Positions 8,362 through 61,435 of a stretch of DNA of 64,000 bases are shown piece after piece. Position 1 is the first letter of the stretch. The number at the start of each line of letters is the position of its first letter. Below the pieces are notes generated by a model. That model did no database searches and had not been told where the DNA came from. It saw nothing but the letters and a program-made list of their open reading frames with translations. Both the position numbers and the translations under genes were made by a program. The DNA is from Anaerolineae bacterium. GTDB lineage: Bacteria > Chloroflexota > Anaerolineae > Aggregatilineales > Phototrophicaceae. The stretch covers positions 6,105 through 70,104 of the forward strand of contig DAOTVP010000088.1 in the NCBI GenBank assembly GCA_034436155.1, written 5' to 3'.

Positions 8362-8380
8362 GTACAGGTTATAAGCGAGT

Positions 8381-8598
8381 AGGGGCGGATTAGGCGAAGC
8401 CGTATATCCGCCCTATGATACGGAAATTTTTAGGTGTGTAGGGGCGGATTAGGCGAAGCCGTATATCCGCCCTATGATACGGAAATTTTTAAGTGTGTAG
8501 GGGTGGATTAGGCGAAGCCGTATATCCGCCCTATGATACGGAAATTTTTAGGTGTGTAGGGGTGGATTAGGCGAAGCCGTATATCCGCCCTGTGATTA
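8381..8598. repeat. Tandem array, 59-bp period, about 3.7 copies, each unit carrying one two-tier REP-like hairpin
   Basis: Units start at 8381, 8440, 8499 and 8558: aGGGGCGGATtaGGCgaaGCCgtatATCCGCCCtatgatacggaaatttttaggtgtgt. Copies 3 and 4 have a C->T change in the outer stem. Lies between the convergent clc and fhs genes. Confidence 0.92.
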
Positions 8599-8615
8599 GG
8601 CAAAATCGCTACCCA

Positions 8616-35211: not shown

Positions 35212-38064
35212 ATGACCATCCGACGCGCTCATATCACCATCAGGGGCATCGTGCAAGGAGTGGGATTTCGCCCGTTCATCCATCGGCTGGCGCATCAAGC
35301 CCAGTTGACGGGGTGGGTGAATAACACCGCGCAAGGGGTGGTCATCGAAATAGAAGGGGATGAGTATCTCATCCAACATGTTTTAGGGCGCATCCGAACC
35401 GAATTGCCACCTCATGCCCATATCGCCGATATGCAGGTGATGTACATCCCCCCTATTGGCGATAGCGATTTCATCATCGAAAAAAGTGCCGATGACGGCG
35501 CAAAAACGGCGTACATCCTCCCCGATTTGGCGATGTGTCCCGATTGCCTGCGCGAAATGACCGACCCGCATAATCGGCGTTATCGCTATCCGTTCATCAA
35601 TTGTACGCATTGCGGACCGCGCTATAGCATCATGACCGATTTGCCCTACGACCGCCCGAATACGACCATGCGCGAGTTTGTCATGTGTGCCGATTGCCAG
35701 CGTGAATATGACGACCCCGCCGATAGGCGTTTTCATGCCCAACCGATAGCCTGCCCCGTGTGCGGACCGCATATCGCGTTATGGGATGCCGATGGACAAA
35801 TTTTAGCCACCCATCACGAGGCGATCATCGCCTGTGCCGATGCGTTACGGGCGGGGAAGATAATCGCCCTCAAGGGCTTGGGCGGGTTTCATCTGCTCGC
35901 CGATGCGACCAATCCAGACGCGATCCACACATTGCGCCAACGCAAACATCGCCCGCATAAACCATTTGCCGTCATGTTTTTGCATATGGATGAGATTCGC
36001 CGTTGGTGTGTGGTGGATGATGTGGCACAGGATTTGCTCACATCCCCCGAAGCGCCGATTGTGTTGTTGGAGAAGCGGATTTATCCCCACGCTCTAACCC
36101 CTGCAGATGAGGAGCATCCCCACGCTCTAACCCCTGCAGATGAGGAGCATCCCCACCCCCTAACCCCCTCCCCACTTCGTGGAGAGGGGGGATGGCATGA
36201 TAATCCACCACATACCCCCCCTTTCTCCATGCAATGGGGAAAGGGGGCAGGGGGGATAGGGGACGATTTACTCGCACCAGACAACCCCACGCTCGGCGTG
36301 ATGCTTCCTTATACACCGCTCCATCACCTGTTGCTATCCGAATGTGGCTTCCCGCTCATCGCCACCAGTGGCAACCGCGCCGATGAGCCGATTTGTACCG
36401 ATGAATACGAGGCGCTCACCCGTCTGCGCGGGATTGCCGATTTGTTTCTGGTGCATAACCGACCCATCCAGCGTCCGATAGATGATTCGGTAGTGCGCGT
36501 CATGGCGGGGCGGGTGATGATGATACGCCGTGCGCGGGGTTATGCGCCACTGCCGATAAAACAACCCCACCCCCTAACCCCCTCCCCAAAAATTGGAGAG
36601 GGGGAACAGCATGATAATTCGTCAAATACTCCCCCTTTCTACATGCAATGGGGAAAGGGGGCAGGGGGGATAGGGGACACGACTTTAGCCGTTGGCGCAC
36701 ACCTCAAAAATGCGGTAGCGATACGGCGCGGGGATGATATTTTCATCAGCCAACATATCGGCGACCTCTCTACCGCAGGCGCACATCATCATTTTGAACA
36801 GACCATCGCCGATTTATCCGCCATGCTCGATGTGCATCCGCAAAAAATTGTGTGCGATGCCCATCCCGATTACGCCTCGACCACCTACGCCCATCAAAGC
36901 GGGTTGCCTATCCGCAAAATTCAGCATCATTACGCCCATGCGTTGGCGTGTTTGGCAGAAAACGGCGTGGAATTGCCCGCGTTGGCGGTCGTCTGGGATG
37001 GCACAGGTTACGGTGATGATGGCACGATTTGGGGCGGTGAATTTTTGCGATTGACCCGTAACAGTTATGAACGGGTGGCGCATGTGCGACCGTTTCCGTT
37101 GATTGGCGGAGATAGCGCCGTGATAGAACCGCGCAAAACGGCGCTTGGTTGGTTGTATAGCTTGCTCGGAGATGCGATTTTTGACGATGAACAATACGCG
37201 CCCGTCCGACAATTCACACCCGACCAACGGCGTGTGTTGCGCCAGATGGTGCAGAAAAAGGTGAACTGTCCGATGACGAGTAGCATGGGGCGCTTGTTCG
37301 ATGCGGTTGCTTCGCTCATGGATGTGTGTCATGTGATGACGCATGAAGCGCAGGCGGCGGTGATGCTCGAATATTTGGCTTCGCAACCCCACCCCCTAGC
37401 GCCGATAAATGGAGAGCGACCCCACCCCCTAGCGCCTATGAATGGAGAGCGACCCCACCCCCTAGCCCCCTCCCCACTTCGTGGAGAGGGGGAACAAAGA
37501 AATTTTTATCCTATGTGGGATGACGAGGCGCTGAAGGGGCTAAAATCTGATATACAGATGTCAATATGTTCAGGTGATAAGGTATCATCACAATCTCAAT
37601 ATGACAATCCAATCGGTGAACACCCCAGCCCCTTGAGTGGGCTTCCAAATTCGATAGCGAGGGGTTTTGAACCCCTCGCGGGGCATCCAACGGCGCAAAC
37701 AAGTCCCCTCTCCATGCAGAGTGATGAGGCGCAAACAAGTCCCCTCTCCATGCAATGGGGAGGGGATTTAGGGGTGGGGTTGCTCACATCGCTCATGGCG
37801 GATATAAACGCGGGCATCCCCAAAACGGTGATAAGCCATAAATTTCATGTTACACTTATAGAGATAATCATCCACACCGCGCAACGCATCGGCGAGAGGC
37901 GCGTTTTGCTCACAGGCGGGTGTTTTTTGAATAAACCCTTGCTCGAAGGCGCGATTATTCGCCTACGCGAGGCGGGATTCATCCCCTATTGGCATTCCCA
38001 AGTCCCGACAGGCGATGGCGGGATATGCTTCGGGCAGGCGGTGGCGTGGATGTTATCATCATGA
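35212..38064 (+). CDS. hypF: [NiFe]-hydrogenase maturation carbamoyltransferase HypF, expanded by three in-frame repeat insertions
   Basis: Acylphosphatase domain (ITIRGIVQGVGFRPF). Two Zn fingers (CPDC...CTHCGPRYS; CADC...CPVCGP). YrdC-like ALKGLGGFHLLADA. Kae1-like C-terminus. Start ATG 35212. About 950 aa, whereas my recollection of typical HypF is roughly 750-800 aa. Confidence 0.9.
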   Translation: MTIRRAHITIRGIVQGVGFRPFIHRLAHQAQLTGWVNNTAQGVVIEIEGDEYLIQHVLGRIRTELPPHAHIADMQVMYIPPIGDSDFIIEKSADDGAKTAYILPDLAMCPDCLREMTDPHNRRYRYPFINCTHCGPRYSIMTDLPYDRPNTTMREFVMCADCQREYDDPADRRFHAQPIACPVCGPHIALWDADGQILATHHEAIIACADALRAGKIIALKGLGGFHLLADATNPDAIHTLRQRKHRPHKPFAVMFLHMDEIRRWCVVDDVAQDLLTSPEAPIVLLEKRIYPHALTPADEEHPHALTPADEEHPHPLTPSPLRGEGGWHDNPPHTPPFSMQWGKGAGGIGDDLLAPDNPTLGVMLPYTPLHHLLLSECGFPLIATSGNRADEPICTDEYEALTRLRGIADLFLVHNRPIQRPIDDSVVRVMAGRVMMIRRARGYAPLPIKQPHPLTPSPKIGEGEQHDNSSNTPPFYMQWGKGAGGIGDTTLAVGAHLKNAVAIRRGDDIFISQHIGDLSTAGAHHHFEQTIADLSAMLDVHPQKIVCDAHPDYASTTYAHQSGLPIRKIQHHYAHALACLAENGVELPALAVVWDGTGYGDDGTIWGGEFLRLTRNSYERVAHVRPFPLIGGDSAVIEPRKTALGWLYSLLGDAIFDDEQYAPVRQFTPDQRRVLRQMVQKKVNCPMTSSMGRLFDAVASLMDVCHVMTHEAQAAVMLEYLASQPHPLAPINGERPHPLAPMNGERPHPLAPSPLRGEGEQRNFYPMWDDEALKGLKSDIQMSICSGDKVSSQSQYDNPIGEHPSPLSGLPNSIARGFEPLAGHPTAQTSPLSMQSDEAQTSPLSMQWGGDLGVGLLTSLMADINAGIPKTVISHKFHVTLIEIIIHTAQRIGERRVLLTGGCFLNKPLLEGAIIRLREAGFIPYWHSQVPTGDGGICFGQAVAWMLSS
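36083..36263 (+). mobile_element. G/C-rich hairpin MITE-like element, copy A, in frame inside hypF; left end triplicated (2 x 33 bp)
   Basis: 33-bp tandem atccccacgctctaacccctgcagatgaggagc at 36083-36115 and 36116-36148. Then a 113-nt core at 36151-36263: CCCCACCCCCTAA..CCCCTCCCCActtcgTGGAGAGGGG..CCCCCTTTCTCCATgcaATGGGGAAAGGGGG..GGGGGGATAGGGGA. Confidence 0.8.
36565..36677 (+). mobile_element. G/C-rich hairpin MITE-like element, copy B, in frame inside hypF
   Basis: 113 nt, colinear with the copy A core. Ends and both hairpin stems are identical; differences are confined to the loops and the central spacer. Confidence 0.8.
37387..37779 (+). mobile_element. Composite 393-nt element (131 codons), copy C, in frame inside hypF
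   Basis: Left end CCCCACCCCCTAG (present three times through a 33-bp tandem duplication, 37387-37452). Right end TAGGGGTGGGG at 37769-37779, an inverted repeat of the left end. Internal hairpins CCCCTCCCCActtcgTGGAGAGGGGG and CCCCTCTCCATgcaATGGGGAGGGG. A 36-bp tandem duplication at 37692-37763. Confidence 0.8.
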
Positions 38065-55742: not shown

Positions 55743-55760
55743 TATTTTAACCGTAAAAAA

Positions 55761-55872
55761 TCCCCCATCCCCAGCCCTTCCCCCATCGAATAGGGGAAGG
55801 GGGTAAAAACCACCTTTGAGGTAGGATTTTAGCCTCCTCTCCATGCAATGGGGAGGAGGTTGGGGGTGGGGA
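55761..55872. mobile_element. G/C-rich hairpin MITE-like element, intergenic copy E
   Basis: TCCCCCATCCCCAGCC ... CCCTTCCCCcatcgaataGGGGAAGGG ... CCTCCTCTCCATgcaATGGGGAGGAGG ... GGTTGGGGGTGGGGA, with inverted termini. Confidence 0.75.
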
Positions 55873-55897
55873 TAATCGATTCAAGAAAGGATACACG

Positions 55898-57136
55898 ATG
55901 AAAAAACTAACTTTACTTTGCATACTTATCTTCACACTAGGATTAACCGCCGTGAGCGCACAAGACGACACCAAAATCCCACAACTGCCTAGCGAAGGCG
56001 CATTTTTCACGGGTGAATATCGCAATATCTTATCGGAATGGGGGTTATCGGATGAAGAAATCCAAACCCGCATTGATGAAACATTCCAGCAATTGTTTTA
56101 TGGCGATGACGACAACGAGCGCGTGTATTACGAACTCGGTGATGACATGGCGTATATCGTCGACATCAACAACAACGATATTCGCACCGAAGGCATTTCG
56201 TATGGCATGATGATCACCGTCCAGATGGATAAAAAAGCCGAATTTGACCGCCTCTGGAAGTGGGCATATACCCATATGTATCACAAAGAGGGTCCGTGGG
56301 CGGGGTATTTCTGTTGGCATACCCGCCTAGACGGGACATGTATCGACAACAACCCCGCATCCGATGGTGAAATTTGGTATGCCACCGCGCTATTTTTTGC
56401 CTCTGCCCGTTGGGGTGATGGTGAAGGCATTTTTAATTATAAAGAATATGCCCAAACCATCCTCAACACCATGATTCATCAAAAAACTGCCCTCGCCACA
56501 CCGACATTCGACCCCGAAACCAAGTTAGTGGTGTTTGTGGCGCAAATTGGAGAGGTGAGCCAATTCACCGATCCATCGTATCAAGCGCCTCATTTTTATG
56601 AAATTTGGGCGCGGTTAGCCACGCAAGATAACGAATTTTGGCAAGAAGCCATCCAAGCCGCCCGTGAACATTGGCGTAATGCCGCCCATCCCGTCACAGG
56701 GTTGATGGCGAATTATGCTGAATTCACAGGTGAACCGCGGGATTGGGGTGGTAGTGATTATGGCGGTGTGTATTATGCCGATGCGTGGCGCATTGGCATG
56801 ATGGTGGCGCTGGATTACATCTGGTTTGCCCCAGACCAATGGCATGTCGAACAGAGCAACCGCTATCTGCGCTTCTTCCACGATTTAGGCATCGGGCGCT
56901 ATAACAGTCGCTTCTTGATTGATGGCACGCCACAGGGCTTTCAACATCGTTCTACGGGGCATATCGCCACCAACGCCGTTGCCACCCTCGCGTCTACCGA
57001 GCCGTTTGTGTGGGATTTCCTCGAAGAATTTTGGAATACGCCCATTCCGACAGGACAATATCGGTATTATGATGGATTGTTGTATATGATGGCGTTGTTG
57101 CAGACCAGTGGCAATTTTAGAATTTATATGCCATAA
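55898..57136 (+). CDS. GH8 glycoside hydrolase (xylanase / exo-oligoxylanase-like) with signal peptide
   Basis: EGISYGMMI catalytic-acid region and GH8 signature-like ASDGEIWYATALFFASARW. Signal peptide MKKLTLLCILIFTLGLTAVSAQ. Confidence 0.78.
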   Translation: MKKLTLLCILIFTLGLTAVSAQDDTKIPQLPSEGAFFTGEYRNILSEWGLSDEEIQTRIDETFQQLFYGDDDNERVYYELGDDMAYIVDINNNDIRTEGISYGMMITVQMDKKAEFDRLWKWAYTHMYHKEGPWAGYFCWHTRLDGTCIDNNPASDGEIWYATALFFASARWGDGEGIFNYKEYAQTILNTMIHQKTALATPTFDPETKLVVFVAQIGEVSQFTDPSYQAPHFYEIWARLATQDNEFWQEAIQAAREHWRNAAHPVTGLMANYAEFTGEPRDWGGSDYGGVYYADAWRIGMMVALDYIWFAPDQWHVEQSNRYLRFFHDLGIGRYNSRFLIDGTPQGFQHRSTGHIATNAVATLASTEPFVWDFLEEFWNTPIPTGQYRYYDGLLYMMALLQTSGNFRIYMP

Positions 57137-59938: not shown

Positions 59939-61435
59939 TTATCCCTCGAATAGCGCACGCAACGCACCTTTATCCACCTTGCCTGTGCTATTCAGGGGTA
60001 AAGTGGGCAGTATGCGCCAACGGCGCGGGATTTTGTAGCCCGCCAAGTGTTGCCGTAAAGCCGCTTGCAGGTGGGGTATATCCACCTCGCCCACCAGCGC
60101 ACACGCCACGATCTGCCCCCATTCGGGGTCGGGGATGCCCACCACCGCTACATCCGCCACGCCCGAAAATTGGCGCAACACCGCCTCAATTTCGGCGGGA
60201 TATACATTTTCGCCACCCGTCACGATGAGGTCGCTCCGCCGTTGGATGACCCACAGGTCGCCGTCACGATCCACATAACCCATATCGCCCGTGAATAATT
60301 CGCCATCCCGTATCGTTTTGGCAGTGGATGCGTCATCGTGATAATACCCCGCCATAACGGTCTTTCCGCGCACGGCAATTTCGCCGATCGTCCCCGTTGG
60401 GCAAGTGTTCTCGTGTTCGTCTACGATGCGAATGGTGATGCCGTTCATCGGTTTGCCCACACTGGCGGGTTTGCGATAGGTCATATCGGGCGTGGCGGTA
60501 CACACTTGCGAACTGGCTTCGGTCAATCCGTAGGTGGTGGCGACAGGCAAGCGAAAATCGGCACACCGCGCCATCAGCCGCTCATCCGCCGCGGCACCAC
60601 CGAGCAAAATCAGCCGTAGCGATGGAGTCCACGCCCTCACATCCCGCTCCAACAACCGATACAACATGGTCGGCACGAGCGAAATCAGCGTAATCGGGCG
60701 GGTGCATAGGGCATGATACACGCTATCGACATCAAAGCGCGGGAATAACGAGACGGTCGCGCCTAGCATAAAACAGCGCACGAAAATCGATAACCCGCCG
60801 ATATGATACAACGGCAACACGCATAGCCAATGATCATCAGCCGTCATGTTCAGACGTTCATGCGAGGCGACGGCGTTGGCGATGAGGTTATCGTGCGTGA
60901 GCATCGCGCCTTTCGGTTTGCCCGATGTGCCAGATGTGAACATGATGCACCCCACCCCTAAATCCTGCACGGAGAGGGGGCTGGTTTGCGTCCCCACCCC
61001 TAAATCCCCTCCCCATTGCATGGAGAGGGGACTTTTTTGCTCCCCCTTTCTCCATGCAATGGGGAAAGGGGGCTGGGGGGATAGGGGAAACCCATACACC
61101 GCCACATCCACATCTGGCACGGGCATGTCATCGGCATGTATCAGACAGGTCGCGCCCGCAAATTCCACCTGATAGCGGATTTCATCCCCCGTCAGGCGCG
61201 TATTGAGTGGCAACGGAATCGCGCCCAATTCCCACAAGGCGATAATCATCCGCACATACACGGGGTGATTATGCGCTAAAATTGCCACTACATCCCCGTT
61301 TTGGATACCCCACTCACGCAATTGCGCCCTGTCATGCTGGATTGCCTCGCGTAATTGGGCGTAGGTATACGTCCCGTGTGGGGTGATGAGGGCGGGTTTA
61401 TTTTGCGTGGCGCGGGTTAGATATGGGTAGAGCAT
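59939..61435 (-). CDS. AMP-dependent synthetase/ligase (MenE-like acyl-CoA ligase) carrying an in-frame repeat insertion
   Basis: FTSGTSGKPKGA, LPLYHIGGL, TYGLTE, GDMGYVDRDGDLWVIQRRSDLIVTGGENVYP, NSTGKVDK. About 50 extra residues just before the P-loop. Confidence 0.85.
   Translation of the reverse strand: MLYPYLTRATQNKPALITPHGTYTYAQLREAIQHDRAQLREWGIQNGDVVAILAHNHPVYVRMIIALWELGAIPLPLNTRLTGDEIRYQVEFAGATCLIHADDMPVPDVDVAVYGFPLSPQPPFPIAWRKGEQKSPLSMQWGGDLGVGTQTSPLSVQDLGVGCIMFTSGTSGKPKGAMLTHDNLIANAVASHERLNMTADDHWLCVLPLYHIGGLSIFVRCFMLGATVSLFPRFDVDSVYHALCTRPITLISLVPTMLYRLLERDVRAWTPSLRLILLGGAAADERLMARCADFRLPVATTYGLTEASSQVCTATPDMTYRKPASVGKPMNGITIRIVDEHENTCPTGTIGEIAVRGKTVMAGYYHDDASTAKTIRDGELFTGDMGYVDRDGDLWVIQRRSDLIVTGGENVYPAEIEAVLRQFSGVADVAVVGIPDPEWGQIVACALVGEVDIPHLQAALRQHLAGYKIPRRWRILPTLPLNSTGKVDKGALRALFEG
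60950..61088 (+). mobile_element. G/C-rich hairpin MITE-like element, copy D, in frame inside the ligase gene (element orientation antisense to the gene)
   Basis: CCCCACCCCTAAATCC (x2, at 60950 and 60992), CCCCTCCCCATtgcATGGAGAGGGG, CCCCCTTTCTCCATgcaATGGGGAAAGGGGG, GGGGGGATAGGGGA. Confidence 0.8.

Follow-up and report, generated by a model that had tools for sequence, protein, structure and literature searches.

A cluster of triplex-type repeats read in frame within a MenE-type ligase gene of an Anaerolineae bacterium

Palindromic repeats that are read in frame within bacterial genes are a known phenomenon. Rickettsia palindromic elements (RPEs) were described as in-frame insertions in housekeeping genes that are unrelated to one another (Ogata et al. 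2000, 2002; PMC10969869, PMC3733652), and nearly half of those in R. conorii are located within open reading frames (ORFs) (PMC10969869). Intragenic dimers and clusters of repetitive extragenic palindromic (REP) sequences, whose RAYT-type members are marked by a GTAG/CGTC tag, encode 20–82 amino acids (PMC3733652). The BoxC/PIT/TMECO repeats (Bachellier; Hoyne and Maher 2000; Holder et al. 2015, PMC4666352) include the E. coli example CCCTCGCCCCTCTGGGGAGAGGGTTAGGGTGAGGG. Here, we analyzed a stretch of 64,000 nucleotides from an Anaerolineae bacterium (contig DAOTVP010000088.1; this whole stretch is referred to as the window), in which a 138-nt segment inside a gene for a MenE-type o-succinylbenzoate-CoA ligase was found to be derived from dispersed repeats. 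The segment is a repeat of the BoxC/triplex type, an assignment that is well supported. It most probably represents a three-unit cluster that lies in frame in the loop preceding the P-loop of MenE and is carried as a tolerated 46-residue passenger, not as a functional module.

Repeat units in the ligase gene

The gene and the parts of the segment are as follows.

59939–61435, − strand: MenE-type o-succinylbenzoate-CoA ligase, ORF of 498 amino acids with all ANL motifs intact (Pfam, TIGR01923, PDB match, alignment A1)
60950–61087, − strand: repeat-derived segment, 138 nt or 46 codons, translated PLSPQ...DLGVG, just before the strand leading into the P-loop
61041–61087, + strand: beta unit, 94% identical to the hypF copy at 36629–36680 and matched by nhmmer
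60992–61040, − strand: alpha unit (nhmmer E = 4e-15), 90% complementary to hypF 37719–37779, with 0 mismatches in the three-block test
60950–60991, − strand: truncated third unit, 42 nt (ACGCAAACCAGCCCCCTCTCCGTGCA followed by GGATTTAGGGGTGGGG), without the 3' hairpin arm, delimited by pairwise DNA alignment with locus L001

The ligase contained Pfam AMP-binding (E = 2.4e-77) and AMP-binding_C domains, scored 365.3 bits against the menE equivalog TIGR01923 (curated cut-off 330.15), and had MenE proteins as its closest PDB structures, with B. subtilis MenE (5buq) as the top match and S. aureus MenE also among them. It belongs to the ANL superfamily, and every invariant residue and column of this superfamily was kept in a protein alignment of 20 orthologues (A1). 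The gene itself lies outside any menF-menD-menB-menE-menH cluster; a 47%-identical orthologue (P0049, locus L124) is located within such a cluster. With a confidently modelled fold and the invariant residues present, the ligase gene looks functional.

The protein around the insert reads ...VYGF-PLSPQPPFPIAWRKGEQKSPLSMQWGGDLGVGTQTSPLSVQDLGVG-CIMFTSGTSGKPKG, PLSPQPPFPIAWRKGEQKSPLSMQWGGDLGVGTQTSPLSVQDLGVG directly preceding CIMFTSGTSGKPKG, and SPLSMQWGGDLGVGTQTSPLSVQDLGVGCIMFTSGTSGK is an example of a peptide spanning the insert. A first-pass annotation had proposed a repeat element at 60950–61088, immediately before the P-loop. This placement was confirmed, as the 46 repeat codons adjoin CIMFTSGTSGKPKG, and the start was also correct, but the end was set one base too far and is actually at 61087. 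The junctions are GGGTTT/CCCCTATC...GGGGTGGGG/TGCATC. On the + strand, the truncated unit is followed by the alpha unit in reverse orientation and then by the beta unit. The beta unit consists of a C-block (61042–61053), the loop ATGCAAT, the G-block GGGGAAAGGGGG (61061–61072), the loop CT and the mirror tail GGGGGGATAGGGG (61075–61087); as read directly from the sequence, this tail mirrors the stem with ATA opposite AAA. The ligase reads the reverse complement of the beta unit as PLSPQPPFPIAWRKG. In gene sense, the alpha unit comprises GCAAAAAAG, the hairpin TCCCCTCTCCAT-GCA-ATGGGGAGGGGA, ATTTA and the tail GGGGTGGGG, and is translated as KSPLSMQWGGDLGVG. The truncated third unit is bounded by a 16-nt direct repeat, GGATTTAGGGGTGGGG. 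Alpha and beta are mutually inverted and thus form a REPIN-like doublet, of which positions 60997–61078 are paired as a single long hairpin in the minimum free energy structure. The predicted folding energy of the repeat region was −89.2 kcal/mol, compared with −63.7 ± 4.4 in shuffled sequences (z = −5.8).

A common architecture was found in these units: a C-rich block, a complementary G-rich block, 2–5 nt, and then a G/T block that mirrors the G-rich block. For example, the alpha blocks are CCCCTCTCC-ATGCAAT-GGGGAGGGG-ATTTA-GGGGTGGGG, with 0 mirror mismatches, and the second and third blocks occur as different pairs (GGGGAGGGG then GGGGTGGGG, GGGGAAAGGGGG then GGGGGGATAGGGG, and GGGGGAAGG then GGGGATGGGGG). 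Among unique stem/tail combinations from the window and 120 loci, the purine-motif mirror rule held for 93 of 207, whereas permuted tails obeyed it in 60.8 ± 4.3 cases (at most 75 in any of 500 permutations), which shows that stem and tail covary. The G-rich half of the units is also a canonical G-quadruplex motif. Judged by this block pattern, the ligase segment is composed of units with the BoxC, PIT or class II intrastrand triplex-motif architecture. Rfam searches with the element gave only sub-threshold matches resembling miRNA-precursor hairpins and no family, and neither an intrinsic terminator nor a promoter was predicted inside it. A canonical four-run G-quadruplex motif, GGGGAGGGGAUUUAGGGGUGGGG, was observed inside the ORF in the sense of the ligase mRNA (60992–61014, − strand).

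The segment among MenE orthologues

We compared the segment across alignment A1 and the DNA of five of its orthologues. Six orthologues (P0006–P0009, P0013 and P0014) lacked it and had a short unrelated native loop instead, whereas an orthologue with 86% amino acid identity from a separate metagenome-assembled genome (MAG; P0002, locus L001, GCA_023382695.1) shared the same doublet with identical junctions, without the 42-nt truncated unit. An insertion of 46–50 amino acids had been proposed earlier. The 46 repeat-coded residues and the existence of repeat-free orthologues agree with this; however, these residues occupy the place of ∼22–25 native residues, so that the event was not a pure insertion and the net gain is ∼20 amino acids. 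Between the LNxRL motif and the P-loop there are 90 amino acids in the window protein and mostly 68–71, but up to 106, in 120 orthologues. B. subtilis MenE, which aligns on either side of the segment and not across it, has 40 residues where the window protein has 61. The 42-nt difference between window and L001 falls between the 16-nt direct repeats, as is typical of slippage or recombination. When metagenomes were scanned for allelic variants of the loop, a 22-mer from the flank gave 0 matches, and a 20-mer from the P-loop matched 21 unrelated ANL enzymes.

The orthologue in L001 also bears on the quality of the assembly. A chimeric MAG join at a high-copy repeat could produce a similar picture: the repeat breaks Logan unitigs, sequencing depth in the source run is approximately ten-fold higher over the alpha core, and the repeat is found at many contig ends in another MAG, F11_13. 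However, insert and junctions are the same in the independent MAG (L001), which comes from another sample. In the source run, both junctions are spanned by overlapping contigs with 0 differences and no alternative or empty-site joint, and the reading frame passes without a break into conserved ligase sequence on either side. An assembly artefact is hardly credible.

AlphaFold2, run on alignment A1, gave a model with a mean predicted local distance difference test score (pLDDT) of 82.3, in which residues 121–157 scored below 50 and formed no secondary structure; DLGVG, the final residues encoded by the repeat, continues into the strand leading to the P-loop. In this model the insert looks like a floppy, disordered surface loop, with the rest of the fold intact. 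A G/C-rich, strongly folding and mobile-looking element inside an ORF might also escape translation, through excision from the mRNA or through ribosomal bypassing, as known from T4 gene 60 or from "byp" elements, which are GC-rich sequences in yeast mitochondria. Yet all in-gene copies checked (138, 96, 117 and 117 nt) are multiples of three and stop-free in the host frame, which is required by translation and not by bypassing; the junctions (TTT/TGC) have no matching take-off and landing codons, and the element has no RNA family match. On the grounds of length and frame, ribosomal bypass and an intein-like reading were rejected, and removal or bypass of any kind appears highly improbable.

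The DNA comparison with L001 revealed an unexpected degree of conservation. Within the shared element 96 of 100 positions are identical, compared with 300/344 and 870/1008 in the flanks (13.5% different; Fisher P = 0.005). The 4 differences, of which 2 are synonymous and 2 non-synonymous, are all in one loop and the spacer, and the ∼69 positions of the blocks show 0 changes (P about 5e-5 if they drifted as the flanks do). Either gene conversion by other copies or selection acting on DNA structure is therefore needed to account for the unchanged blocks, and their identity between the two genomes suggests concerted evolution or constraint at the DNA level.

Such conservation could also mean that the segment serves the host, its structured DNA or RNA modulating menE transcription, translation speed or mRNA stability, or its flexible loop tuning the enzyme. 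Perfectly conserved stems and tails in two genomes whose flanks differ by 13%, the position of the loop directly before the P-loop, and GGGGAGGGGAUUUAGGGGUGGGG on the sense strand, a potential RNA G-quadruplex with four G4 runs on the mRNA strand by direct reading, are compatible with such a role. On the other hand, close orthologues fill the same loop with unrelated repeat families or with nothing, the number of units varies through the 42-nt indel, identical units occur in unrelated genes and in intergenic DNA, and the 4 substitutions show no sign of constraint on the peptide. We consider a host function distinctly improbable.

The loop is filled in several other lineages. P0003 and P0004 (L002) have a reverse-oriented alpha remnant together with other hairpins, and the loop of P0005 (L003) contains a two-tier REP, from a family also present in the window, whose stems covary. 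P0011 (L122) contains two palindromic GTAG-type REP hairpins ending in CTAC, with further copies on the same contig and in other Anaerolineae loci. In the 47%-identical P0049, two tandem triplex-type units are present, independent of the copy in the window. The simplest reading of this repeated filling is a selection filter acting at the most length-tolerant site of the enzyme. A bolder view is that the pre-P-loop region of MenE is a "repeat nest", in which a resident structured repeat attracts further hairpin families (triplex-type units, GTAG REPs) and copies are kept identical by conversion or DNA-level selection. We regard this as unlikely; if it were true, repeated invasion, slippage and replacement would drive a rapid turnover of an enzyme loop, and structure-prone selfish repeats would regularly supply Chloroflexota proteins with new loop sequence. 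As side observations, the close MenE orthologues P0010–P0012 differ by the presence or absence of one of the two GTAG-type REP hairpins (L122 10319–10486), and the same REP hairpin is read in different frames, as DLSRPYD in L002 and IYRVPT in L122.

Dispersed copies and open reading frames

Four further copies of the family were located in the window.

36148–36264, + strand: doublet in hypF (copy A), in the same + strand orientation as in the ligase and read from the + strand
36562–36678, + strand: doublet in hypF (copy B)
37692–37782, + strand: half unit and full alpha unit in hypF, oppositely oriented on the + strand; the translation is SPLSMQWGGDLGVG, as in the ligase
55760–55874, + strand: intergenic doublet of the ligase/hypF repeat family, 24 nt upstream of an ORF starting at 55898

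The hypF gene is on the + strand, and its match to TIGR00143 (793 bits) is divided into four stretches by inserts. In direct orientation, 61040–61091 is 94% identical to 36629–36680, which in turn is 92% identical to 36215–36266. These values bear out the earlier proposal that one element family lies in hypF and the ligase in the same + strand orientation and that the ligase, on the − strand, reads it from the opposite side. Allowing up to 2 mismatches, 6 occurrences of the core 15-mer CTCCATGCAATGGGG were counted in the window (0.27 expected). It had also been noted that the ligase peptide PPFPIAWRKG is the counterpart of PPFSMQWGKG in HypF. Direct reading supports this, the two peptides being encoded in the same phase by the two strands of a near-palindromic hairpin, CCCCCTTTCTCCATGCAATGGGGAAAGGGGG; they are alike because the hairpin CCCCCTTTCTCCAT-GCA-ATGGGGAAAGGGGG is almost identical to its reverse complement. 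Other, isolated occurrences of GGGGTGGGG in the window do not belong to elements. Immediately before hypF doublet A there are two tandem 33-nt copies (CCCCACGCTCTAACCCCTGCAGATGAGGAGCAT, 36083–36147), which look like slipped duplications of the element's C-tail and flank. In the intergenic gap at 8369–8603, another hairpin repeat was seen as a 59-nt tandem array with 3 to 4 copies.

The occurrence of the family was then surveyed by one pattern scan of genome contigs and in 123 loci. In the species-representative genome collection, the 19-mer alpha core was present in at least 117 stretches, almost all of them from MAGs of Anaerolineae or other Chloroflexota. In MAG F11_13, the doublet is the interior of a 135-bp element resembling a MITE (a miniature transposable element with inverted repeats), with 15-nt terminal inverted repeats (AGGACTTTCGCTYAC).

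L007 3513–3647, L026 1697–1831, L089 993–1127 and others: 135-bp elements of F11_13

These elements were observed in AT-rich DNA and at many contig ends, with no clear target-site duplication. A copy was counted as intragenic when the ORF spanning it extended at least 60 codons on both sides. Only 14 of the 68 evaluable copies were inside an ORF, compared with 58% of random positions (P = 4e-10), a three-fold depletion; the other 54 were outside long ORFs. Copies in ORFs elsewhere were read in at least three frames and in both orientations, with translations that include PLSMQWGGDLGVG, PPLHAMGRGFRGG, NPLPPTSSPLHGEGE and PHPLAPSPLRGEGE. Most copies of the family thus lie between genes; they are depleted in genes, and yet intragenic copies recur. 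An in-frame triplex-type unit (NPHLHEMGRGAGGGVS) was also seen on a related Anaerolineae contig (L003 3483–3529), in a gene for a class I methyltransferase (Pfam Methyltransf_23/11/25). When the insert peptide was searched against 1.84 billion representative proteins, 2 weak matches (E about 1e-4) were found, the power of the search being low with a low-complexity query of 46 residues.

The first-pass annotation had further suggested that the element is open in at least one frame on each strand and that this property would let it persist in coding DNA in either orientation. The first part was borne out: the ligase copy has frames free of stops on both strands, 4 of 6 in total. On this basis the family might have evolved open frames on both strands as an adaptation to persist in coding DNA. 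The ligase composite exceeds its shuffled controls (1.2–1.9 open frames, P = 0.02–0.04), and in-ORF copies do occur in both orientations and at least three frames. However, 65 unique units had on average 4.23 of 6 frames open, compared with 4.06 after dinucleotide and 3.71 after mononucleotide shuffling, so no special bias was apparent. In the six-frame check of the window composites, five of the six had only 2–3 open frames, no different from shuffles, and the three-fold depletion in long ORFs speaks against openness as an aid to persistence in genes. The frames are open because of the G/C-run composition, and openness is symmetric between the strands because the element is a palindrome. Such an adaptation is accordingly quite unlikely.

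Proposed history and relation to known repeats

The preferred explanation remains that of a tolerated passenger. The cluster would have landed in, and partly replaced, a variable surface loop before the P-loop strand of MenE, and it may have persisted simply because its length happens to be a multiple of three and it is stop-free in the frame used. Its translation would yield a 46-residue disordered loop rich in Pro, Gly and Ser, leaving the fold and the catalytic motifs untouched; in this, its behaviour would be comparable to that of RPEs and intragenic REPs. The segment probably changes by slippage or recombination between its own direct repeats, resulting in the 42-nt indel. Identity of stems and tails is most likely maintained by gene conversion with other copies, with selection on DNA structure as the alternative.

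Several points weigh against this explanation. A neutral passenger should outpace its coding flanks in divergence, yet the segment is slower, and an extra process must be assumed. With regard to spread, no target-site duplication was found at the junctions of the segment, tblastn with E. coli RayT gave nothing at E ≤ 1 in 809 kb and thus no RAYT, and no DUF559 gene was detected by tblastn with YcjD in the Chloroflexota loci surrounding the repeats (787 kb). With regard to class, the strict TMECO consensus (CCCTCNCCC N3-6 GGGNGAGGG N3 GGGNGAGGG, taken from PMC4666352) had 0 regular-expression matches in the window and the 123 loci (809 kb), while the same expression recovered the E. coli copy beside ycjD; moreover, the E. 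coli K-12 copies of the triplex motif are always intergenic (PMC4666352). Finally, the gene was found in no RNA run, and translation of the insert is predicted from its intact reading frame. As a separate observation, the strict TMECO/BoxC motif lies ∼170 nt downstream of ycjD (DUF559) at L123 5206–5240, that is, E. coli K-12 NC_000913.3 ∼1351205–1351239.

The ligase insert reveals no new mechanism. It does extend in-frame palindromic repeats in housekeeping enzymes to Chloroflexota and to repeats of the BoxC/triplex motif, which are described solely as intergenic in the literature searched, whereas the ligase copy is intragenic. It also provides a case of one enzyme loop refilled by different repeat families in sister lineages, and a natural test case for the homogenisation of such repeats by conversion. 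For annotation, it implies that Pro/Gly-rich stretches of low complexity in Anaerolineae proteins, for example PLSMQWGGDLGVG, derive from repeats and should not be taken for domains.

Among the known systems, bacterial MITEs (PMC10969869) are likewise small and non-autonomous with inverted ends, and their in-frame fusions with host ORFs are known; however, the ligase copy is without terminal inverted repeats beyond its own C- and G-tails and without target-site duplication. REP/BIME/REPIN sequences (Bertels and Rainey 2011, PMC3116915; Di Nocera et al. 2013, PMC3733652) are also short G/C-rich hairpins, often arranged as inverted doublets forming one hairpin. By direct reading, the ligase units differ from them in having neither GTAG/CTAC nor CGTC/GACG at their ends and in carrying a third, mirror block, whereas GTAG-type REPs are present in the same MenE loop of sister lineages, such as the hairpins of L122 that end in CTAC. 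Like the ligase segment, RPEs are palindromic repeats that add translated peptide where the fold can accommodate it, and they occur in both orientations. The two differ in lineage and composition and are probably unrelated in sequence and size, and only their behaviour is alike; in addition, the ligase/hypF family is mostly intergenic and depleted in ORFs.

The closest likeness in architecture is to BoxC/PIT/TMECO, which has the same succession of C-block, G-block and mirror G/T-block. Both are dispersed and multi-copy with near-identical copies, both show local indels and instability, and a transposase is not known for either. In contrast to TMECO, the Chloroflexota blocks are CCCCTCTCC/GGGGAGGGG/GGGGTGGGG or CCCCCTTTCTCC/GGGGAAAGGGGG/GGGGGGATAGGGG, with loops of 7 and 5 (or 2) nt. 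The host phylum also differs, the units commonly occur as inverted doublets, and the copy in the ligase lies in a coding frame, whereas those of E. coli are intergenic.

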